Notes under the pieces: generated by a model
Seen by the model: only the letters and a program-made list of their open reading frames with translations
Told to the model about the DNA's origin: nothing
The model's database searches: none
Shown here: in pieces, positions 8,628 to 59,932 of the stretch
How positions within the stretch are numbered: the first letter of the stretch is position 1
Layout of the letters: every line of letters begins with the position of its first letter
Origin: Camelus ferus
Taxonomy: Eukaryota
Reading direction: 5' to 3'
DNA: 64,000 bases
Assembly: GCF_009834535.1 (NCBI RefSeq)
Contig: NC_045696.1
Span: 33,420,001-33,484,000 of the forward strand
Translations under genes and position numbers: made by a program

Positions 8628-9249
8628 AATATATCTGGAGGTAACTGTAATTCCAAAAGATACATGCACCCCAATATTCATAGGAACACTATTTACAATA
8701 GCCAAGACATGGAAGCAAGCTAAATGTCCATCCACAGATGACTGGATAAAGAAATTTTGGTATATTTATACAATGGAGTACTATTCAGCCATAAAAAAGA
8801 ACAAAATAATACCATTTGCAGCAACATGGATGTACCTAGAAATCGTCATTCTAAGTGAAGTAAGCCAGAAAGAGAAAGAAAAACACCGTATGATATCACT
8901 CATATGTGGAATCTAAAAAAAGACAAAAGAAGACACTAATGAACTCATCTACAAAAGAAAAACAGACTCACAGACATAGTAAACAGTCTTATGGTTACTG
9001 GGGGGAAAAGGGGTGGGAAGGGATAAATTTGAGAGTTTGAGATTTGCAAAGGTTAATCACTATATATAAAAACATAAAAAATAAAAATCTGCATAACACA
9101 GGGAACTATATCAATATCTTATAATAACATTTAATGAAAAAGAATATGAAAATGAATATATGTATATATACATGCATGACTGGGACATTATGCTATATAC
9201 CAGAAATTGACACAGCATTGTAACTGACTATACTTCAATTTTAAAAAAA
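8628..9249 (+). mobile_element. 5'-truncated lineage-specific L1 (ORF2 end + 3'UTR)
   Basis: aaaagatacatgcaccccaat...caatggagtactattcagcc; G-rich tract; ends gtaactgactatacttcaatt plus A tail. Confidence 0.9.
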
Positions 9250-9315
9250 GGCCTATAGCCTAACTTGAATTGGAAATATCAGTATGAACTCTAGAGATAT
9301 TTTATCTTTAAATAT

Positions 9316-11354: not shown

Positions 11355-11401
11355 ATCTGTTTTACTGCTCCTGCTAACCCTGGTTACAAAAATTCCTTTT
11401 C
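11355..11401 (+). repeat. 47-bp dispersed direct repeat, copy 1
   Basis: atctgttttactgctcctgctaaccctggttacaaaaattccttttc; 46/47 identical to 12431-12477. Confidence 0.95.
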
Positions 11402-12430: not shown

Positions 12431-12477
12431 ATCTGTTTTACTGTTCCTGCTAACCCTGGTTACAAAAATTCCTTTTC
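12431..12477 (+). repeat. 47-bp dispersed direct repeat, copy 2
   Basis: atctgttttactgttcctgctaaccctggttacaaaaattccttttc. Confidence 0.95.
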
Positions 12478-13706: not shown

Positions 13707-14614
13707 AAATGAATATATGTATGTAAATGCATGACTGGGACATTGTGCTGGACATTGTGCTGTATACCAGAAACTGATACATTGTAATTGACTGTATTTC
13801 AATAAGTTTTTTTTACCTTTTTTTTATTGAGTTATAGTCATTTTATAATGTTGTGTCAAATTCCAGTGTAGAGCACAATTTTTCAGTTATACATGATAAT
13901 ACACATATTCATTGTCACATATTTTTTTGCTGTGGGCTACCACAAGATCTTGTATATATTTCCCTGTGCTATACAGTATAATCTTGTTTATTTATTCTAC
14001 ATATGCCTGTCAGTATCTACAAATTTTGAACTCTCAGTCTGTCTCTTCCCACCCTCCTCCCCCCTGGCAACCACAAGTTTGTATTCTATGTCTATGAGTC
14101 TGTTTTTGTTTTGTAGTTATGTTCATTTTTTTTTTTAGATTCCACATATGAGCGATCTCATATGGTATTTTTCTTTCTCTTTCTGACTTACTTCACTTAG
14201 GATGACATTCTCCAGGGACATCCATGTTCTGCAAATGGCATTATGTTGTTGTTTTTATGGCTGAATAGTATTCCATTGTATAAATATACCACTTCTTCTT
14301 TATCCAGTCACCTATTGATGGACTTTTAGGCTGTTTCCATGTCATGGCTATTGTAAATAGTGCTGCTATGAACATTGGGGTGCAGGTGTCTTTTTGAAGT
14401 AGGGTTCCTTCTGGATATATGCCCAGGAGCGGGATGACTGGGTCATATGGTAAGTCTATTCCTAGTCTTTTGAGGAATCTCCATACTGTTTTCCACAGTG
14501 GCTACACCAAACTGCATTCCCACCAGCAGTGTAGGAGGGTTCCTTTTTCTCCACAGCCTCTCCAGCATGTGTCATTTGTGGAAAATTTTTTTAATGTAAA
14601 TGCAAAAAAAAAAA
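13707..14614 (+). mobile_element. Short young L1 3' end (about 100 bp + tail) containing an antisense L1
   Basis: 13707-13803 matches the L1 terminus at about 9150-9240; poly-A near 14604-14616; exact 15-bp TSD aagttttttatcctt (13692-13706, 14615-14629). Confidence 0.85.
13807..14582 (-). mobile_element. Young L1 3' end, antisense, different 3'UTR subtype
   Basis: Poly-T then ttattgagttatagtcatt; reverse-complement ORF2 C-terminus (ggctgaatagtattccattgta; ccaaactgcattcccaccagcagtgtagg). Confidence 0.92.
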
Positions 14615-14764: not shown

Positions 14765-15121
14765 CCTTGCATTTTTATGAAAGGAAAAAATATCAGAATG
14801 TGTCTCCATGGAGCCACTGAATCTAGGGTTTTGATTGAAATTATCTTTTAAAAACTTTTTATTCAAAGATAATTTTAAAGAGGATAAAATGGTGTCTTTA
14901 TTAAACATGTCATTCTATATTCAGAAATTAAGGATTTGGGGGCTCTCATAGAAGTCAAGAAGATATGAAGTGTGAGTGAGTGTGTAGGGGTGTGTGTGTG
15001 TAAGTGTTAAGGAGGGGTGAGAAAACAGACAAATGTAATTTATACACAGTATTTATTATAGACACTATTCTATACTTTTCTCTGGCTGGTTATGAATTTC
15101 TAATCAAATCTCATAGCTCTT

Positions 15122-15299
15122 TTTTTTCTTATTGAAGTATAGTCAGTTACAATGTGTTAATTTCTGGTATGAGAACTGGTTAAAGAAGCTGTGGTGTATT
15201 TATACAATGGAATACTACTCAGCCATAAAAAAGAATAAAATAATGTCACTTGCAGCAACATGGATGGATCTAGGGATCATCATTCTAAATAAAGTTAAG
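15122..15299 (-). mobile_element. L1 with 5' inversion/deletion (twin priming)
   Basis: Antisense terminus 15122-15170 joined to a sense ORF2-end piece at about 15175-15299; TSD tcatagctctt (15111-15121, 15300-15310). Confidence 0.9.
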
Positions 15300-16650
15300 T
15301 CATAGCTCTTAAAGTGGAAGTAACTTCCTATCTTTTGTGAGCCTGATTAAATTTAGCATTCATGATATGCAAGATTTTAAAACAGAAGAGCATATTTGAC
15401 ATGAAGAAACTTGATTAGGAAACACAGCACCGATTTCCTTTCTCCCACCTCTTCCCACACCTCTATTCTAAGTTTCTAGAGATAGTATCTTGTACTGAAG
15501 GGGCTCTGTAGGGCCTGTTCCTTTATTGCAGGAACTGTGAAAGTGATGGCATTGACCTATCCTCAGGCTGACCTTGGATGAGTGGTTGGCTGTTTTTTCC
15601 TCTTGGAAAAATGTCCTCCTGGAAAAATTTAGATATCCTCCAAAATCCCAGGAGAGAAAAGAAGACTGTGGTAGTTTGAGCCACACAAATTGATATTTAT
15701 AGAATATTGTATCTCCAAACATCAGGAAACACATTCTTCTCAATTGTACATGGACTATGCACTAAGAATGGGCAATACATCAAGTCTCAGTAAGTTTCAA
15801 AGAATTAAATCATATAGAATGTTCTCAAAATCTTCAAATATCAGAAATTAAGCAATCCACTTCCAAATAAATATGTTTACAGAATAAATCACAGTGAATA
15901 TTTAAATACTATTTCTAAACAAATAACAAAGAAAACGCAGTACTTCAGTTTATCCCAGTTAGGCAATGTTTGGAGGGAAATATATTTTTTTAAATATCGC
16001 TATTAGAAAAAAAAAGATGCAAAATCAGTTATCTATGCTGCCAACTTAAGAGCTATATTAAAAAGTCAAATTAAAATGAAATTAATAAAAGAAATAAAAA
16101 GAGTGGAAATTAGTGAAATATAAAAGAGATAGACAATAGCTAAAATCAACAGTCAGAAATTGATTCTTTGATAAAGTTATTAAAATTGTTAAATCCTTAG
16201 GAAGATTGATAATACAAAAAAAAGAGAAATACAGAGGGAAAAAACACGAATTACCAATGTTGTACTAAGAGAGGGAACAACATTACAGGTGATACTGACA
16301 TTTAAAAGATTATAATAACATTGTGCCAATAAAATTGACAACTTATGTGAAATGAATGTAGTCCTTGAAAATCACAACTTGCCAAATCTGAATCAAGAAT
16401 TAGAAAATCTGATTAGCCCTATACATGTTGCTGAGTTTTTTTAATTAAAAAAAAAAAACCCACAAGAAAATTTCAGACACAGATTGCTTCACTGGTGAAT
16501 TCAATGAACACTTGAGGAAGATTAATACCATATCATGCAAAGCTTTTAAGAAACTAGAGGAGGAGGTATAACATCTTCCTTAAAGATGAGGATTGGTACA
16601 GAACAGACTAAGTCAGATGACCTGGGGATACACTGAGCTGCCCCTAATGA

Positions 16651-16779
16651 AGTTCTTGGCTTAAATTCTTACTTACGACCTTACTAATACTGCTAACTAT
16701 ATTATTTATATTTTGTCTGTTTTACAAAATTGTTGTTTCTTGCATTACCAGATATGTGACTGAGCCTCTGATAAAATAA
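16651..16779 (+). pseudogene. env: ERV env membrane-spanning domain remnant
   Basis: Translates SSWLKFLLTTLLILLTILFIFCLFYKIVVSCITRYVTEPLIK*, upstream of an ERV1-like LTR segment. Confidence 0.55.
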
Positions 16780-17039
16780 TGACTAGGCAACTTGAAACAG
16801 TAGACCAGGTATATACTTGTGTATGAGCCTAATGATTGTAATAGTGCAACTCTAGATATGGGAAGAAGCAACAAGAGGGAGTATTTTCCTGGATCACAAC
16901 AGGCTAGTAATACACGTGGTCCAGAGACGTTTTTGCTACTGTTAATAAGGCCTAGTCCCATAATAGCACACTGAGTGGCCTATCAATAAAATCCTCGCCT
17001 GACCTAGGAATAAACATTCCTAACACTGTGGGATGAAAT

Positions 17040-17357
17040 GGTTGTGCCAAGCCATGGTCAAATTTGTGATCATGAGGGCACTCGCCATCTCCCTCTACAA
17101 GGACTGGATCACGTGGGCACTTGCCATCTACCTCTGCTTGGATTAAATCATGAGCCGCTGCAGCTGCTGACCTCCAACAAACCCTGAAAGGAGTGCAGGG
17201 TGACAATCAGGAATGAGGCGCTCTGTGCTCTGGGAAAACTGGCTGAACAGGCCTTCAGATAGATGTTTTCAGAAGAAGATTTTATGAGCCCAAATTCTTG
17301 CATCTCCTCATATCTAGAAAAGCACTAAAGTCATTAACAGTGACATCTGCTTTGGCC
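17040..17357 (+). mobile_element. Cetartiodactyl ERV1 LTR U3 part
   Basis: gctgcagctgctgacc...ccctgaaaggag...caggaatgaggc...ttcttgcatctcctcatatctagaaaagcactaa recalled from bovid/camelid ERV1 LTRs; internal tandem duplication of about 39 bp. Confidence 0.65.
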
Positions 17358-17603
17358 ATTAAGGAGAAAAAAATGCATTTGAAAATCAAAATGGAATAGC
17401 TGTAGTTCAGACATCCAAGGTAAAACTAGGTAACCAGTGTAGACGTGATTTCAGACAAGTTTCTGTATTGACGAGAACTTGGGTTTTCTGAGCGATGTCA
17501 AAATTAGAATGCCACCAGCCATTCTCAGAGCAGTGTCTGCTGGCCACTTGTAGCTACACCCTTATGGGTTTAAGTTCTCCTCTTGTAGTTATTGAGTTTC
17601 TGG

Positions 17604-17838
17604 ATTCATTCTGCCTGTTGTACTTTCATACCAGATGAATCCAGGAGCATCACAACTGCCCTAGAGGACATGAAGCAACACATTCATAATGTAGGGGGTT
17701 CAGATGCATATGTGTGAGAAGTTACATCTCCGGTTAACAGCTGGTTTTCTGGCCTCTTTTCGTGTATACCTCAAGGTCTCAAATCCACTCTTACGGGAAT
17801 TCTACAGGTTCTGTTATCACTTCTGTTAACAAAAGTTG

Positions 17839-17839
<1 letters not shown>
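17604..17839 (+). pseudogene. env: Second ERV env TM ectodomain/TM remnant
   Basis: Translates IHSACCTFIPDESRSITTALEDMKQHIHNV...(TGA 17715)...SWFSGLF...ILQVLLSLLL; the CC-TFIPD text fits the end of a gamma-type CX6CC motif. Confidence 0.65.

Positions 17840-17899
<60 letters not shown>
17840..17899 (+). repeat. (GATA)15 microsatellite
   Basis: 15 perfect GATA units. Confidence 0.97.
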
Positions 17900-17900
<1 letters not shown>

Positions 17901-19229
17901 AATTTAGACTAAAAAAAAAAAGAAACTAGAGGAGGAGGAAACACTTTCCAACTTGCTTTTTTGAAACCCATATAACCCTGATGCAAAAATCAAAGTTATT
18001 AGAAGCAAAAAAAATTGCAGACTGATATTCCTTGTGAACGTAAGAAAACATCAGTAAATCTCATCCAACAATACATAAAAAGGATAACACCATGACCAAA
18101 TAGGTTTTATCCCCGGACTGTGAAACGTTTCACATAAAAAGTCAATCAATGTAATCTGCTACCTATTTAAAAAAATCATGTAATGACATCAATAGGTACA
18201 GAAAATACCATATGACAAAAGTCAACACTGATTCATGATAAAAGCTATCAGCAAACTAAGAAGAGGGTATTCTGATCTAGAAGCAGGCAGCTGTCACAAT
18301 CTATAGCTCACATCATACTTAAAGAGGAAATCCTAAACACTCCCTCCACCTTAACGTTGGGAATAACGAAAGACTGTCTTCTTTCAGCATTTCTATCCAA
18401 CTTTGTACCATAGCTATGGAAGTGGGATCACATCTGTTTAAACGCTTCTGAAGGGAGTGGTGTCACTAGACAGACACTATTATGATTACTTGTAGCCAAA
18501 CTTTTCTGTAGGGAATACACTAATTTTAGTCAAAAAGTTTCTAAGAAAATGTAGCCTGGACTTACTGTTACACAGGTGAATCATGGGGTCTGGTGATGAA
18601 AAAATGTAGGTTCCCTGGTTTTCTGAAATCTGTTTAATGGTAAATGAACCTCAAGTTTAATCCATCCCATTAGTAAATGGCTGGATCAATAAGTCTTTGC
18701 AAAGGACGTCGAGGTTATTTATTAACCATAAAAGCACACACAAAGGGAGTAGGATAAAACTTCATAATCTCACATTAATTTGATTTGAAATTTCTACTTG
18801 GTTGGTGAAAGATAATTCAATACATGTGCTTAGTGTATAATAATTTGGGAGATACAACAGAATATTTTATGATATCAGTGGAGGTTTATTAATCATAATT
18901 TTGCAAAACAGTGTAGACAGTTATACAGAAATCAAAGAAGCCACGTGGCAATTATTTATTTTGCAATAGTAGAAAATTTCCCATTGCTACTCTAGTAGGG
19001 ATCTAGATGGATACAAGGCACTTTCACAGTGCTGTTTCTCAGTCAAAAGAAGGAATAAACATCATCCACCAGAAACAGCCAATAAACATTGTATTGCATT
19101 TAAACAAAATGTGTAGTTGTGCATTTAAATAAAATCTGGAGTATAATTTGAGCTGCAAAATACTGTGCTAATGCATTGGAAAAAGGTGAACTGTTGAATT
19201 TTATGAATGGGCTTGCACAGCCTGATTAC

Positions 19230-51890: not shown

Positions 51891-52570
51891 CAAAAACTCA
51901 CTTAACACATTGACCAAGACTTCTTAAAGTTTCAAGCAATATCAAGTGATTCATCTAATATTTAATTGGTTACTCTTTAAGGAATTGATAAAAGTACTTA
52001 CAGGTGATAAGCTCAGATCTCCACTCAATTTAGCTGACTTTGCAGGAAGGGAGATAGATTTGTATCAGTGCGTTCATTCATATTCTATTGCTTGGTATCC
52101 TTGAGACCGATGGTCTCTATTGAGACAATATAATTTCATTACCTAAAATAATGAAGCAAATGAGGCTTTTAGTGACTGAACAAATTCCATCCACCATATT
52201 GAAACCATGTAATCTAACATTAATCTAAAGAAGCTGGGATGTGGAAAGCTGGTAAACTGGTTATTGATGACATCATCATGAGAAAATAATTAACTCTACA
52301 GCCAAAGGATTATTGGCACTACTGACAAAGCCCAAAGGGGAATTGAAACAAACACAAAATAGTGATCTGTCATAAACAGAAATAAAAAACATAACTTTGG
52401 AATGACTTTGGAGTGGCTCTGGGTCCAACATTTTTAAACTGTAATCTTAAAGAAACATTGAAAGGAGAATAAATAGACTTTATATTCTAGAATAAAATAT
52501 ATGGATTTTTCAATAACTGTGTGCAAACTATTAAAGCACTTGTAATAAAAAATTTCTATCTTGTGGAGTT

Positions 52571-55500
52571 GGGGGGTCTGCCAAGATGGTGGGGGACAAA
52601 GACCCTGAGCTTACTTCCTTTCACAGGCACACTGAAATCACAACTATTTACAGAACAACTATCAATGAAAAAGATCAGAACCTATCAGAAAAGATCTTCT
52701 ACAACTTAAGATATTAACAAACCACACAGAGACAGGTAGGAGGGGCAGAGCTGTGATACAGGTAAGTCCCACACCCCCAGGTGGGTGACCACAAATAGGG
52801 AAATAATTACAATTGCAGAGGTTCTCCCAAAGGAGTGAGAGATCCAAGCCCCGCACTGGGCTCCCCAGCCAGGGGGCCCTGCACTGGGAAGATGAGCCTC
52901 CAGAGCATTTAGCTTTGAAGGTTAGTGGGGCTTAATTTAGGAATCCCAGGGGGCTGGGGGAAATAGAGACTTCATTAAAGAATGGACACAACATCTCACA
53001 CTCTCAGGTACCCATGGCAGAAGCAGTAATTTGATAAGCACCTGGGCTCAGAACTACCTGATGATCTTGAAGAATCTCCTGGAGAGGCAGGTGGCAAGTG
53101 CAACTCAACCTGGGGACAAAGACATTGGCAGAAGCCATTTTGGGGAGCACCTTTGGCCATGTGGACACTGGTGCTTATGAGAACAATTTTGGAACCCACC
53201 CTCTAGCTTAGTAACTCTAGGACCCAGCCCTGGTCCTGGCTCAGCATTGTGTAGGGGCCAGTGCTGGGATGCCTCAGGCAAAGCACATAACTTGGCATGG
53301 ACACAGCCCCACTCACCAGCAGATAGGCTGCCATAAGACCCCCTTTGCACACAGCTGCCTCTGGACACATCTCTGCCCACTAGAGAGACCAGGACCCAAC
53401 CCCATGCAACAGTGCATAAGCACTAGACCTGAGACCCTAAGGACCCTCCAGCCAGAGACCATAGAATCCAGCTTTACCCATTAGTGGGCAGGTACCAGCC
53501 CCAGCACTCCCTAGGCCCAGCCTCACTCACCAAAAAGCCTGCTTTAGCCTTGGGACCAGCCCCACCCACCAGGAAGCAGACATCAGCTGTAGAAAAACCA
53601 CAGCACTACAAGCTACAGACCCAGCCCACCCACCAGCAGGCCAGATCCTGCCCTGGGATCTGCTGGGATCTGCTGGGCTCTGGCCTTGCATACTACCCAG
53701 CCAGCACAAGCTTCAAGACACCTTGGGCCACAGAGACATATGTGTCAGGAACCAGCCCCATCCAACCCACAATCCAATACCAGATCTGGGACACCTGGGC
53801 CCTGCACCAGCCCCCAGGATTCATCTCGGCTCACCAGGAGGCCAGCATTGGCCACAGTACCTGGAAATAGTCCCAGAGTCTCCTGGACCCTGACTTCTGG
53901 CAACCAGTAAATCAGCATTAGATGCAGGGCACCCCAGGGTTCTGCAGGCAGTCACTTTATGACCTGGTCTCACTAACCAATGGCCAGTAACCTCTGCATA
54001 AGGCAGGACCTGTCAACCAACCAGACCAGGGGCTAACCACACTTGTCAGCCCATCACAACAGAAAGACCTACACAGCCCTCATAGGGGAACCCCTAGAGC
54101 ATTAGCCCTGGTGATGAAGAGGGAAGTGTGCTGCTGGGGACATACAAAACATCACCTACAAAAGGAACTTCTCCAAAATCAGGAAACATAACCAACCTAC
54201 CAGATACATTAAAAACAAACAACAAAGAACTTAAGCAAACTGAGGCTACAGAGAAACATGTTCTGAATGGAGGAACAATATAAAACCCATAAAGTAGTTG
54301 AGATAGGCAATCTACCCAAGAAAGAGTTCAGGATAGTGATCATAAAGATGATCAAAGAACTCAGGAGAAAAATGGAGGCACAGAGGTGAGAAGGCAGAAG
54401 TGTTTAACAGAGAGTTAAAAAAGTAAAGAACAACCAGAGATGAAAAATACAATAACTGAAATTAAAAATACACTAGAAGGAATAAACAGTAGACTAAATG
54501 AAACAGAGGAATGGATCAGCAAGCTGATCACATGACACTAAAAAGAAAAAAGAAAAAAAGAATGAAAAGAAATGAGGACCATCTAAGAGAACTCTGGGAC
54601 AATTCTAAGCACCCTAGCATTCATGTTATAGAGGTCCCAGAGGAGAAGAGAAAGAAAGGAACTGAGAACATAAATGAAGACATAATAGCTAAAATTTTCC
54701 CTAACCTGGGAAAGAAAATAGACATCCAAGTCCAGGAATGGCAGAGAGTCCCAGTTAGGATTAACCCAAAGAGGAACATAGCAAGACACATTGTAATTAA
54801 AATGGCAAAAATTAAAGATAAAGAGAGAATATTAAAAGTATCAAGGACAAAACAGCAAGTTACATACAAGGGAATCTCCATAAGGTTATCACTGACTTTT
54901 TAGCAGAAACTCTGCAGTCCAGAAGGGAGTGGCATGATGTACTTAAAGTGATGAAAGAGAAAAACCTATCACCAAGAATAGTCTACCCAGCAAGTCTCTC
55001 ATTCAGATTTGATGTAGATATAAAAGATTGTAAGAGATTACTATGAAAAATTATACATCAATAAATGGACAACCTAGAAGAAATGGACAAATTCCTAGAT
55101 ATATACACTTTCCCAAGACTGAACTCCCAACAAACAGAAGTCCAGGGCCAAATGCTTTCACAAGTGAATTCTATCAAACCTTTAGAGAAGAAATAACACC
55201 TATTCTTCCCAACCTATTCAAAAAAAAATTGCAAAAGAAGGAACACTACCAAACTCATTCTATGATGCCAGTATCATCTGATACCAAAACCAGAAAAATT
55301 TATCACAAAATAAGAAAATTACAGGCTAATATCACTGATGAGCACAGATGCAAAACTCCTCAACAAAATATTAGCAAACCAAATCCAAAAATACATCAAA
55401 AGGATTGTACACCACGATGAAGTAGAATTTATCCCAGGGAGGCAAGGATTTTTCAATATCTGCAGATCAATCAATGTGATACACCACATTAAATAAGTGA

Positions 55501-56468
55501 AGAATAAAAGCCATGTGATCATCTCAATAGATGCAGACAAGGCTTTTGACAAACTTTAATGTCATTTACAATAAAAATTCTCCAGAACGTGGGAACAGAG
55601 GGAACACAACCAATAAAATAAAGTCCACAGCTAACATCATACTCAATGTTGAATAGCTAAAAGCTTTTCCTCTAAGATAGGAATAAGACAAGTATACTCA
55701 CTCTTGCTACTTTTATTCAACATACTATTGGATGTCCTAATCACAACAATCAGACAAGAAAAATAAATAAAAGGAGTCCAAATTGGAAAGGAAGAAGTAA
55801 AACTGTCACTGTCTGCAGATGACATGAAACTATACATAGAAGCCTAAAGAAGCCACCAGAAAACCATTAGAGCTCATCAATAAATTTGATAAAGTTGCAG
55901 GATACAAAAGTAATATGCAGAAATCTGCTGCAATTCAATACACTAGCAACAAAGTATTAGAAAGAGAAATTAAGGAAACAATCCTATTTGCAACTGCATC
56001 AAAAAGAATAGAATACGTAGGAATAAAACTACGTAAGGAGGTAAAAGATCTGTACTCAGAAAATCATAAGACACTGATGAAAGAAATTAAAGTCAACACA
56101 AATAGATGGAAAGATATACCAGTGTTCATGGATTGGAAGGATTAATATTGTTAAAATGACCATACTACCCGAGGTAATAGATTCAATGCAATTCCTAGCA
56201 AAATACCAATGGTAGTTTTCACAGAACAAGAACAAATAATTTTAATATTTGTAAGGAAAAGACCTCAAATAGCCAAAATGATTTTGAGAAAGAACAGAAC
56301 TGTAGGAGGCACACTCCCTGACTTAGACTATATTACAAAGCCACAGTACTTAAAGCAGTATGGTACTCGCCAAAAAAAAAAAAAAAAAAAAAAAAAACCC
56401 ACATACATAGATCAATGGAATAGGATAGAGAGCCCATAAAGAAACCTACACACTTATGATAAATTTAC
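52571..56468 (+). mobile_element. Decayed L1: 5'UTR, ORF1, internally deleted ORF2; 3' end missing
   Basis: gggggg...CCAAGATGG start; ORF 54511-54903 is ORF1p-like (FPNLGKKIDIQVQEWQRVPVRINPKRNIARHIVIKM); RT motif mutated to SADDM near 55812; stops at acacacttatgataaattta. Confidence 0.92.
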
Positions 56469-57400
56469 CAGTTGGAAAATGGACATATTTCCTCATTTTA
56501 CTTAATAAAGTGTAATCATTCATAAGTACAATTATAAAATGTTTTAACATTGACTTATGTCAGCACTATAATCTTTTTTGCTGTAATTGTAGTCAATATT
56601 TTTGAAAGTATTAATATGTTGGAAAAATATACCAAATATATGCAATAATAAAGTCTATTCTTTTAAAATTTTATTAGATTCTCAGTAAAGGAATACATAT
56701 ATTTTCTGGATACTTGGAAAATATAGACAAACACCAAACAACACAAGGAAAGTAAAGGGGAAATAATAAGTATTAATATCTCTCTTGAAGACTATCATTA
56801 AAAAATCAATATTTAAATTTATGACTTATTTGCTGCCTTAGAAAGTGTTCATAGACCATAAATAATCATATTAAAATTGAAGTTTCTTACTATATATTAA
56901 AATCATATTTTAAAATTCATCAAATTGTATATCTGAGATACGTGCAGTTTACTTGTACAGGAACCATACCACAATAAAGGCGTTAAAAAATTCTATTTTA
57001 GAAGATATGTATTTAATGATAGATTAAAAATTTAACCTGCTATTTAAGAACTAAATAGTATACTTTACGACTGTTTTAGGACTGATACCTTTGATCTGTG
57101 CTGCCAGATTTGCAGATTTAATATTTTAAAATATTTTAAATAGTTAATACACTTTGACATTATTGCTATTTCAAGTGTTTCTCTAAGATGTAAGTCAATT
57201 AGTATTTTTTAATGCAGAGACAATGAGATTTTAAAATTTTATTAGCAATGTTAACTCAATGTAGTTTTTACTGCTAACTTTGTTTTAATATATTAAACTA
57301 CTTGATATTTCTTTGTTTCCTAAGATTCATTTCCAATGTGCTTTTAAAATTTACTTTAAAGTAAGTAGAGTAGCAGCTGAACATAACCTATGCCACATAG

Positions 57401-57824
57401 TGTTATATGCTGTTTTATATTCCTTGAAAATTCATATGCTGGATTCCTAGTTTATAACACATCAATATAACTTTATCAAAATAAAGTATCTTTATTTGGG
57501 GATATGGTCTTCAAAGAAATATATTAAAATAAGATCATTAGTGTGGCACTAATCCAATAGGAATAGTGTCCTCACAAGAAGAGGAAATTTGGACACAAAC
57601 ATAAACAAAGTAGAGATGATATGAAGACACAGAGAGAAGACAGCCATCCACAGGCCAAAGAGAGTCTTGGAACAGATCCTTCCCCTGCAGCCCTTAAAGG
57701 AACCAGTCTTGCTGAGCCTTGATCTTGGACATCCAGCCTCCAGAACTGTGAGAAAATACATTTCTGATGTTGAAGCCACCTGGTCTGTGATACCTTACAA
57801 GAATTCACCTGGCAAACTAATAAA
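57401..57824 (+). mobile_element. MLT1B-like MaLR LTR
   Basis: aaattcatatgctgg...ctaatccaataggaatagtgtcctcacaagaagaggaaatttggacac...ccagcctccagaactgtgagaaaatacatttctg...gcaaactaata. Confidence 0.85.
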
Positions 57825-58109
57825 CTTAGTTAAAACTAAGAATTTAAACTTAAACTTAAGTATTTAAACTTAGAATTTACAGAACCAATAATTATTAAGG
57901 GCAGTAGTACCTAGTAACTTGCATGCATAAGTCTGAATACTAGATAAGGAAATCAGTCTCTACCAAAGGTTGTTCATTACAGATGTCATGTGATGTGTGA
58001 CCCACTTATCATTTCACAAATAGTGCAAACTGTAGAATTAACAATAATTCTGACTGATTTACATACACATTTATATTATTGTTGAAAAGATTATAGAACC
58101 TAAACGAAG

Positions 58110-58785
58110 AGCTCCACTTCCAGTTAAGGCAGCATGAGGAACTCTGAGGACGCCCACCATAGTGAAAGTGGTGAAAATTTAAAAAAAAAAAAAATTTTAA
58201 ATTTTCTGTAAATAGTCTTAAGGGCATATACCAAATGAAAAATATTTATTCAAGAAAATCTACTAAAAGTTGATAAGAACTACAAAAGGCTGTGTTATTT
58301 CAACCCAGACCCATATCGCCCCTCCAGCCTCCCAGCTCAGCTAGGCAGAAACTCCACTCTAGCCTGTACAACCAAGAACATAGTCTCATTCTCCATCCAA
58401 ATCTCAGCCATGGGGTAACTCTCCTAAAATAAGCAAGATATCAGCATTTCTCACCTTGCCCCAGCTACCTGTTGCTGAGGCTAAGTTCTGTGCCAGTGTG
58501 GCTGAGGAGTGGGCTCCCTTCATCTGCCCAGTTCCCACTTGTTGATGGAACTCTACCTTGGGAACAGCACTGCTATAGTGGGATCCTCATTGCCCATGTC
58601 CAGGGTTCTGGGTTGGGGTGATACAGTGAGAGAGGCAAGCCATAGAGACCTGGGACTTCTGCTCCATCCAGTAGACGAAGCGCTAGATTGGATGTCACTC
58701 ATGGTCCTCACTCACTCCCAGCACCAGGGTAGTGGCTCAAAGATTTTGTCCAGGAGGGAAAGCAGTCCATAGAAGAGAGCTCCAA
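58110..58785 (+). mobile_element. Old L1 5'UTR-like fragment
   Basis: cttccagttaaggcagc...atttattcaagaaaatctactaaaag resembles recalled L1M 5' ends. Confidence 0.5.
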
Positions 58786-58789
58786 TCCC

Positions 58790-59722
58790 CAAAGAAAGTC
58801 CAGAAATAAACCAACACACTTACATCAATTAATCTACAACAAAGGAGGCAAGAATAGACAATGGAGAAAAGACAATCTTTTAATAAGTGCTTCTGGGAAA
58901 ACTGGACAGCTACATATAAAAGAATGAAATTAGAACATTCTCTAATACCATATACAAAAACAAACAAAATGGGTTAAAGACCTAAATGTAAGACTGGATA
59001 CTATAAAACTCCTAGAGGAAAACATAGGCAGAACACTCTTTGACATAAATTTCAGCAACATTGTTTTTTGAACCAGCTCCTAGAGTAGTGGAAATAAAAG
59101 CAAAAATAAGCAATGGGACCTAATTAAACTTAAAAGCTTTTGCACAGCAAAGGAAACTGTAAATAAAGCAAAAAGACAACCTACAGAATGGGAGAAAATA
59201 TCTGCAAATGACATGGACCATCAAGGGACTAATTTCCAAAATATACAAACAGCTCATGTGCCTTAATATATATATAAAAAAAATTAACAAATCAATCAAA
59301 AAACAGGCAGAAGACCTAAATAGACATTTCTCCAAAGAAGACATCCAGATAGCCAATAGGAATATGAAAAGATGCTCAATACTGCTAATTATTAGAGAAA
59401 TGCAAATCCAAACTACAATGAGGTTATCACCTCACACCAGTCAGAATGGCCATCATTAAAATATCTACAACTAATAAATGCTGGAAAGGGTGTGGAGAAA
59501 AAGGAATCCTCCTACATTGTTGGTGGGAATGTAAATTGGTGCAGCCACTATGGAGGACAGTAGGAAGGTTCCTTAAAAACTAAAAATAGACTTACCATAT
59601 GATCCAGCTGATCCCACTTCCTGGGCATATATCTGAAGAAAACTACAATTTGAAAAGACACAGGCACTCCAACGTTCACAGAAGCACTATCTACAATAGC
59701 CAAGACTTAGGAACAACCTGAC
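58790..59722 (+). mobile_element. L1 ORF2 C-terminal fragment
   Basis: ORF 59208-59459 ([26 protein letters not shown]); [13 protein letters not shown] encoded from 59515; ends before the 3'UTR. Confidence 0.92.
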
Positions 59723-59932
59723 TGTCAACAGGTGACTGCCCTATTGTTTCTTAATTGTTCCTCTTTTGTTTCTGCATTCCCTCCTTTCCCTGATTAGCAA
59801 TTGTTTGAATTTGTCTTTTGGAACTCGGGGAAGGTCAAGGAGGCTGAATGAAGCCTTTTTCCTACAAACTGAAAAAAGGGAACTTCGAAAGATTTGCACC
59901 AGGAAGCACCCCACAGGGTCCTGCTTTGTATC
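59723..59932 (-). mobile_element. Cetartiodactyl ERV1 LTR 5' fragment
   Basis: ttccctgattagcaattgtttgaat...ggaaggtcaaggaggctgaatgaagcc...ccccacagggtcctgct recalled from bovid/camelid LTRs. Confidence 0.7.

Follow-up and report, generated by a model that had tools for sequence, protein, structure and literature searches.

A 1,353-bp sequence derived from endogenous retroviruses (ERVs), which interrupts an old LINE-1 (L1) element, was analyzed in a 64,000-nucleotide stretch of the Camelus ferus genome (assembly GCF_009834535.1, contig NC_045696.1, positions 33,420,001 to 33,484,000 of the forward strand). The whole stretch is referred to here as the window, and all coordinates are counted from its first letter. 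The sequence is a real L1-type retro-insertion of ERV-derived mosaic material, and the event is of a known kind. Most likely, the insert arose when an RNA transcribed at an older retroviral locus, itself rearranged, was copied on a single occasion.

The insert occupies positions 16567-17919 and is framed by a 19-bp direct repeat (16548-16566 and 17920-17938), the two copies of which are identical at 19/19 positions. The number of exact 19-bp pairs lying no more than 2 kb apart that would be expected by chance in 64 kb is approximately 0.002. The sequence on both sides belongs to one remnant of L1 open reading frame 2 (ORF2), which the insert has split. A second, paralogous L1 in the window was used as a stand-in for the empty site. 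When the two flanks were aligned to it separately, they were found to be colinear, with the left flank ending at 55241 and the right flank starting at 55222, and the 19-mer corresponded to a single stretch (55222-55241) of the homologous L1. Because the 19-mer maps only once on this L1, the duplication was created by the insertion event. The age of the host L1 is evident from its right part, which over 441 aligned bases shares 68% identity with the other L1. The features at the two ends of the insert are as follows (E, expectation value).

16485-16547, + strand: left-adjoining part of the host L1 ORF2 remnant, which continues upstream (aligns to the other L1 from 55153; blastn E 2e-5)
16548-16566, + strand: 5′ target-site duplication, 19 bp, following TTTT and derived from the L1 (exact repeat; maps to 55222-55241)
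17896-17910, + strand: GATAAA and a 9-nt spacer (identified by motif position; presumed polyadenylation signal)
17911-17919, + strand: A-tail, 9 nt (read from the sequence)
17920-17938, + strand: 3′ target-site duplication (exact repeat)
17939-18400, + strand: right part of the host L1 ORF2 remnant (68% identity to L1 55240-55760; blastn E 4e-11)

The L1 that served as the reference (about 52570-59740) is itself decayed and near full-length, with a GC-rich 5′ part and internal deletions. It contains a run of 26 A at 56372 and unrelated sequence from approximately 56450 to approximately 58790.

In terms of the enzyme that made the insertion, the ends of the insert point to L1 and not to a retroviral integrase. 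The run of A at 17911-17921 consists of a short tail of 9 A followed by 2 A that belong to the duplication. The tail is preceded by GATAAA at 17896 and a 9-nt spacer, and we take this GATAAA to be a variant polyadenylation hexamer that presumably directed the addition of the tail. The insert starts with TATAAC and finishes with A, so that the TG..CA ends of an integrase product are absent, and the duplication of 19 bp contrasts with the 4-6 bp left by an integrase. No L1 sequence was detected within the insert by blastn against the L1 at 54000-59700, which was the only L1 compared, and all recognizable parts of the insert lie on the same strand as the A-tail. The top strand at the target reads TTTT/AAGA (TT/AAGA), which has one difference from the TT/AAAA target given in the available text of PMC5016936. 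Because of the exact duplication, the A-tail, the spacing of GATAAA, the TT/AAGA target and the lack of integrase-type ends, mobilization by target-primed reverse transcription of the L1 type is well supported, with the L1 machinery as the probable enzyme source judging from these sequence hallmarks. In these respects the preliminary description of this DNA, which had been made from the letters alone, is borne out: it had reported a 1,353-bp insert in an old L1 with an exact 19-bp duplication at a TTTT/AAGA site, a 3′ A-tail, no TG..CA ends and no L1 sequence, and had attributed the insert to L1 target-primed reverse transcription rather than to integrase.

The interior of the insert is a mosaic in which the 5′ part would represent the 3′ end of one class I element of the ERV1 type (ERV A), followed by a middle piece and by the remnant of a second env gene. 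The long terminal repeat (LTR) is abbreviated in the following lines, as is the transmembrane subunit of the envelope protein (TM).

16567-16782, + strand: env remnant 1, with an abrupt start (presumably 5′ truncation), frames that are broken upstream of 16651, a membrane-span-like frame at 16651-16776, and then stops (translation and Env tails)
16783-17075, + strand: non-coding stretch after env remnant 1, a putative post-env untranslated region of ERV A by its position
17076-17350, + strand: putative U3 part of an ERV1 LTR, both ends approximate (LTR identity and right end as proposed in the preliminary description)
17351-17603, strand not assigned: middle piece, 253 bp, with no convincing match found; its last ~26-29 nt form the outer left arm of a hairpin
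17578-17668, + strand: imperfect 34-bp hairpin that spans the junction of the middle piece and env remnant 2, with 17 A-U, 14 G-C and 3 G-U pairs (folding and arm alignment)
17604-17838, + strand: env remnant 2, a class I TM of PABLB/syncytin-Car1-like type that starts at the end of the CX6CC region and runs into the membrane span (protein searches and Env tails)
17839-17899, + strand: perfect (GATA)15 microsatellite (tandem repeat detection)

Env remnant 2 is a real remnant of a class I (gamma-type) Env TM. It lacks all sequence upstream of the I-H residues and has an in-frame stop at 17715-17717. When positions 17610-17837 were used as a query, with an X at the stop, 8 matches were obtained among 1.84 billion proteins, with E values from 1e-8 to 5e-4, and half of these (4/8) were short fragments with 42-49% identity. 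The other four (P0001, P0002, P0004 and P0008) were discarded as long, multi-stretch matches; P0001, the only one inspected, was a repeat protein. A profile that was built from the env2-related fragments picked out 56 proteins among the 8,000 candidates scored, nearly all of them PF00429, and the best named profile matches of env remnant 2 were PABLB-like Env or syncytin-Car1. Two of the six env2-related database fragments matched PF00429 themselves (E 0.005 and 0.0006), both below the curated Pfam cut-off, and the homology of env remnant 2 to the PF00429-type TM around CX6CC is supported indirectly, via these fragments. The segment was also matched by 58/62 Env tails. Because the 12 best of these alignments begin at 17601 or beyond, env remnant 2 is cut on its left side at approximately 17604. 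These matches agree with the earlier proposal of a second, different env TM remnant, and the (GATA)15 array that had been read behind it was recovered as (AGAT)15.2 with 100% purity.

Other searches gave negative results. No Pfam env family was found in the six frames of the insert, and a direct scan of env remnant 2 with PF00429 was negative. A word-based protein search with env remnant 2 alone gave 141 candidates, none of which was upheld, and none of the six open reading frames of the insert was found in the protein collection. A search of PDB gave three matches, all at chance level, and none of the 196 and none of the 6 pattern hits from protein-guided locus searches in viral contigs was upheld. 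As a separate observation, the bases after the GATA array (17897-17911) translate in one frame as IKFRL, which loosely resembles the IKLLL that lies past the aligned end of the env fragment P0006. This gives a weak hint that the GATA array may have grown inside env remnant 2.

The membrane-span-like frame of env remnant 1 (16651-16776) was matched at the membrane span by 25/62 Env tails, compared with 0-14/62 in 20 control pieces, and for 3 of the 13 Env queries it scored above all 1,422 background frames. The identity of env remnant 1 is moderately supported by these comparisons, to which the hydrophobic composition of the segment may contribute. A cluster-atlas search gave a best value of 0.82 and one cluster with GP41 on 11% of its members, which is a lead only. 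At the DNA level, env remnants 1 and 2 are not alike (52/500 shuffles). The non-coding stretch that follows contains two AATAAA motifs, at 16985 and 17009, both of which were read through. The next segment (17076-17350) may derive from the U3 of an ERV1 LTR of the cetartiodactyl type, and the LTR label and the junction near 17350-17357 are our working assumption. It opens with a 35-nt direct duplication (17076-17110 and 17115-17149; 0/500 shuffles). No clear TG start follows the purine-rich stretch within 17076-17149, and the 5′ end of the LTR may be rearranged. A long-range inverted repeat connects the post-env stretch (16830-16874) with the putative U3 (17295-17336; 0/500 shuffles), with a core of 33 nt at 79%; in the 3′ RNA of the parent ERV, the two segments may have paired with each other.

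The middle piece had been described as about 250 bp of unassigned, LTR-like sequence. It is indeed a piece of 253 bp for which no convincing match was found in Pfam, the 62 Env tails, the protein search, Rfam or the metagenome motif scan, but its likeness to an LTR is unsupported. A third env remnant was considered and rejected, as the DNA alignment of the middle piece to env remnant 2 was reached in 11/500 shuffles but the protein tests were at background. A copy of the 5′ part of the insert was ruled out (396 and 342 of 500 shuffles). A word-based protein search with the middle/env2 frame matched nothing, and motif scans with the insert gave 0 matches in metagenomes, viral contigs and prokaryote genomes.

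The hairpin across the junction of the middle piece and env remnant 2 had been missed by the preliminary description and is a new observation. Its minimum free energy on the + strand is -38.2 kcal/mol (z -5.1; 0/200 shuffles), compared with a z of -1.7 for the minus strand, and the tile that overlaps it has the lowest composition-corrected energy among the 2,324 tiles of the window. On the left arm, the 9 innermost nt coincide with the first codons of env remnant 2, while the outer 26-29 nt lie outside the env homology and mirror downstream sequence of env remnant 2, and this position gives the hairpin added weight. A fold-back that was primed by the inner 9-nt complementarity would yield this anatomy. 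The arms are identical at 31/36 aligned positions, in an alignment with 10 gap columns, in contrast to the intact duplication at the ends of the insert, for which the probability of 19/19 identity would be 0.064 at 13.5% divergence and 0.014 at 20%. Because the arms have diverged and the duplication has not, the middle/env2 junction is probably older than the L1 insertion. If the fold-back is real, then the junction would predate the L1 event and would have been located in contiguous DNA. Two further features of the arms were seen, both in numbers too small for significance: T is the left-arm base at all 5 substitutions (17575-17612), and each of the 3 transitions preserves G-U pairing on the + strand. 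When 17578-17668 was checked as a possible pre-miRNA, no Rfam family was found; the sole Rfam match, to a snoRNA (E 0.78), lies elsewhere in the insert.

An old fold-back in contiguous DNA would argue against splicing at 17603 as well as against template switching at insertion. The preliminary description had proposed a possibly spliced, ERV-derived long non-coding RNA as one of three possible origins. The ERV-derived RNA is retained here, but splicing is weakened at the 17590-17604 junction, since an inverted duplication in contiguous DNA accounts more easily for a 34-bp hairpin across 17603 than does the joining of distant exons. If the mosaic had instead been built during insertion, by template switching of the L1 ORF2 protein (ORF2p) or by RNA ligation among two or three ERV-derived RNAs, then abrupt junctions such as those observed would be expected, and chimeric L1 retrocopies are described in the available text of three sources (10.1101/2025.02.02.635956, PMC4476161 and PMC2104539). 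However, had the fold-back formed during the insertion, its arms should be preserved as well as the 19-bp duplication is, whereas they have diverged and contain indels, and two switches would be required. We regard this explanation as quite improbable. It is marginally less probable again that a simpler retrocopy arrived first and was then altered on the spot by further insertions and deletions. The length of the GATA array may be local, given that microsatellites are able to expand where they lie. For the rest of the insert, ERV A never resumes past the middle piece and env remnant 2 lacks its upstream part, so that extra deletions would be needed, and the intact duplication leaves little time for them. 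Both explanations need more events than the copying of a pre-existing mosaic and are a poor fit to the age contrast.

The occurrence of the insert elsewhere was assessed in the window, where no second copy was found, and with an index of sequencing runs, in which 24 runs were listed for 140 sampled insert words. Fourteen genome-sized sets, from 9 studies and under 3 organism labels, contained 0.49-0.54 of the 140 words, and none contained more. At least part of the insert material therefore exists beyond this assembly, with the reservation that one run may be the source sample of the assembly. The ceiling of 0.49-0.54 equals that of a uniform difference of 2.0-2.3%, in a comparison that had no single-copy control. 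It may reflect a close family or source path that replaced this copy in the contigs, or the loss of only the repeat-rich part. The word share in RNA runs was 0.32 and 0.30 for reproductive-system RNA-seq, 0.31 and 0.27 for possible RNA, and 0.12 and 0.05 for two more. The contig sets of these runs comprise 178-937 million letters, and the share roughly tracks their size, with the four largest shares lying 1.2-1.8 times above it. These shares may reflect genomic background and were not used as evidence.

The explanation that we favor, with somewhat better than even confidence, is that the insert is a dead, 5′-truncated retrocopy made in trans by L1 ORF2p, for which a polyadenylated RNA that had been read through at a locus of mosaic ERV sequence served as the template. 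The source would be a locus of nested or rearranged ERV remnants in which the mosaic was already present, and at least the middle/env2 junction would be an old fold-back inverted duplication in the source DNA rather than a splice junction. An RNA polymerase II transcript would cross the 3′ end of ERV A, including its env tail, its untranslated region and part of its U3, and would continue via the unrelated middle sequence into the PABLB-like env remnant 2, to be polyadenylated just past GATAAA. The L1 endonuclease would nick the bottom strand at TCTT/AA inside the old L1, and ORF2p would then prime on the A-tail, copy approximately 1.35 kb and stop within env remnant 1, leaving the 19-bp duplication. 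Such a copy would be expected to occur once or a few times in the genome.

Several results weigh against this explanation. The best E value of env remnant 1 (1e-4) is no better than that of the best control (9e-6), the membrane-span remnant claimed in the preliminary description is only partly confirmed, and env remnant 1 together with the LTR label is weakly supported. A shuffle z of -5 or lower was also reached by 3 other tiles of the 12 best that were re-tested (of 2,324), and a plain inverted DNA alignment of the full segments was not significant (54/500 shuffles). The hairpin is suggestive, not proven, and could be due to chance. In addition, the plateau of about 0.5 in all 3 organism labels is also compatible with a family present in many copies, in which variants private to one copy were dropped from the contigs.

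Under the latter possibility, the insert would belong to a hitherto undescribed family of composite retroposons in camelids, of ERV origin, that would parasitize L1 in the manner of TINEs or SVA and would carry an internal hairpin and a GATA tail. Its two env remnants, U3 piece and hairpin would be transcribed from a master locus in reproductive tissue, with polyadenylation behind the GATA array, and it would have spread approximately 2% divergence ago. A copy that differs by about 2.0-2.3% from a collapsed family path would be expected to produce the flat share of 0.49-0.54 in the 14 runs. The tarsier elements TINE1-3 offer a precedent, as transcripts of dead LTR elements with an internal polyadenylation signal have seeded approximately 30,000 L1-mobilized copies according to the available text of PMC5059674. 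However, the word share can be accounted for in other ways, for example if the ERV-derived part alone was lost from the contigs, and the 64 kb hold no second copy. The available text of a camelid transposable element survey (PMC8605555) contains 0 occurrences of 'composite' and of 'retroposon', although its repeat libraries could hold the insert or parts of it. In a literature search that did not extend to Repbase or to the majority of subscription papers, neither the insert itself nor any composite ERV family of camelids that depends on L1 was found to be described, and a search of papers for sequence motifs gave 12 hits with titles unrelated to ERVs. The SVA-like family that had been suggested in the preliminary description received no positive evidence here, the insert contains no variable number tandem repeat (VNTR), and we consider a composite family unlikely.

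An orphan 3′ transduction, in which transcription from an active L1 located 5′ of ERV-rich sequence read through to GATAAA and reverse transcription stopped before the L1 sequence, is ranked just ahead of such a family, although it too is unlikely. It predicts the same hallmarks and the same insert as a retrocopy made in trans and differs from it only at the source. The lack of a match to the one L1 compared is as expected, a contiguous genomic origin fits the hairpin junction, and nothing direct counts against it. On the other hand, the sense orientation of all pieces relative to the tail and the bypass of two AATAAA motifs are no easier to explain by read-through from an L1 than by an ERV-driven RNA.

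As a single retrocopy of a read-through RNA, the insert would preserve in fossil form a transcript of ERV origin from the germline or the early embryo. It would be a camelid example of L1 copying retroviral RNA in trans, something already known for HERV-W, and its presence or absence, together with the attached microsatellite, could be used as a marker. This would be useful but unexceptional. If the junctions recur at many loci, then the finding would be weightier, as an artiodactyl parallel to TINEs and SVA. In a dispersed family of this kind, the hairpin could be a small-RNA source directed against the parent ERVs.

Other features of the window were also recorded. The three other strongly folding 111-nt tiles are located at 13751 (+ strand), 18151 (- strand) and 25686 (+ strand). 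A 47-bp direct repeat (11355-11401 and 12431-12477), with copies that are 98% identical and 1,076 bp apart, possibly marks another duplication-flanked insertion or a local duplication. Fragments of L1 3′ ends are present in both orientations (13816-14588, 8629-9251 and 15121-15302), with inverted pairs at approximately 14184-14308 and 15175-15302.

Comparison with known systems shows that the insert shares hallmarks with several of them. On the retroviral side, it works like the processed pseudogenes of HERV-W, which are also copies of ERV1-class RNA made by L1, with a poly(A) tail, a TT/AAAA-type target, a target duplication and an incomplete LTR. According to the available text of PMC5016936 (see also PMC5537654), these make up 135/213 HERV-W loci, are colinear with one proviral mRNA, end in U3-R and a tail, and have target duplications of 5-15 bp at TT/AAAA targets. 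In contrast, the insert is not colinear with a single proviral mRNA, as a TM remnant lies downstream of a membrane-span-like remnant and a putative LTR part, and its tail follows env remnant 2 and (GATA)15 instead of U3-R, with a duplication of 19 bp. Since it departs from the HERV-W type in both structural features, the insert does not belong to this type.

Non-coding genes such as MIR302CHG likewise leave retrocopies with L1 hallmarks, as reported in the available text of PMC7692494. The insert resembles these in showing L1 hallmarks on a non-coding RNA that may carry a hairpin, but for the MIR302CHG-type copies the parents are known, the exons are joined and the miRNAs are real, whereas the searches with the insert yielded no parent, no intron loss and no Rfam family. 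Orphan transductions have been described for L1 and SVA, and the available text of PMC12593883 reports that 68% of SVA transductions carry transposable element fragments and 13% carry several. Similar to these, the insert has a tail and a duplication around non-L1 sequence rich in transposable elements and contains no donor sequence (with one L1 compared). Orphan 3′ transductions, however, are defined by a source directly downstream of the donor element.

SVA and LAVA share with the insert a composite structure, a dependence on L1 and the combination of an env tail with a U3-like piece; the SINE-R of SVA consists of HERV-K env and U3. Unlike these elements, the insert lacks a VNTR and a hexamer head, the GATA array being the only array found, and the order of its parts differs. 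An Alu-like domain is not expected in camelids, and no second copy of the insert is known. The TINEs are likewise L1-mobilized, derived from dead LTR elements and provided with an internal polyadenylation signal. They are short elements that go back to a single LTR and occur in thousands of copies, whereas the insert is a 1.35-kb mosaic of multiple sources.

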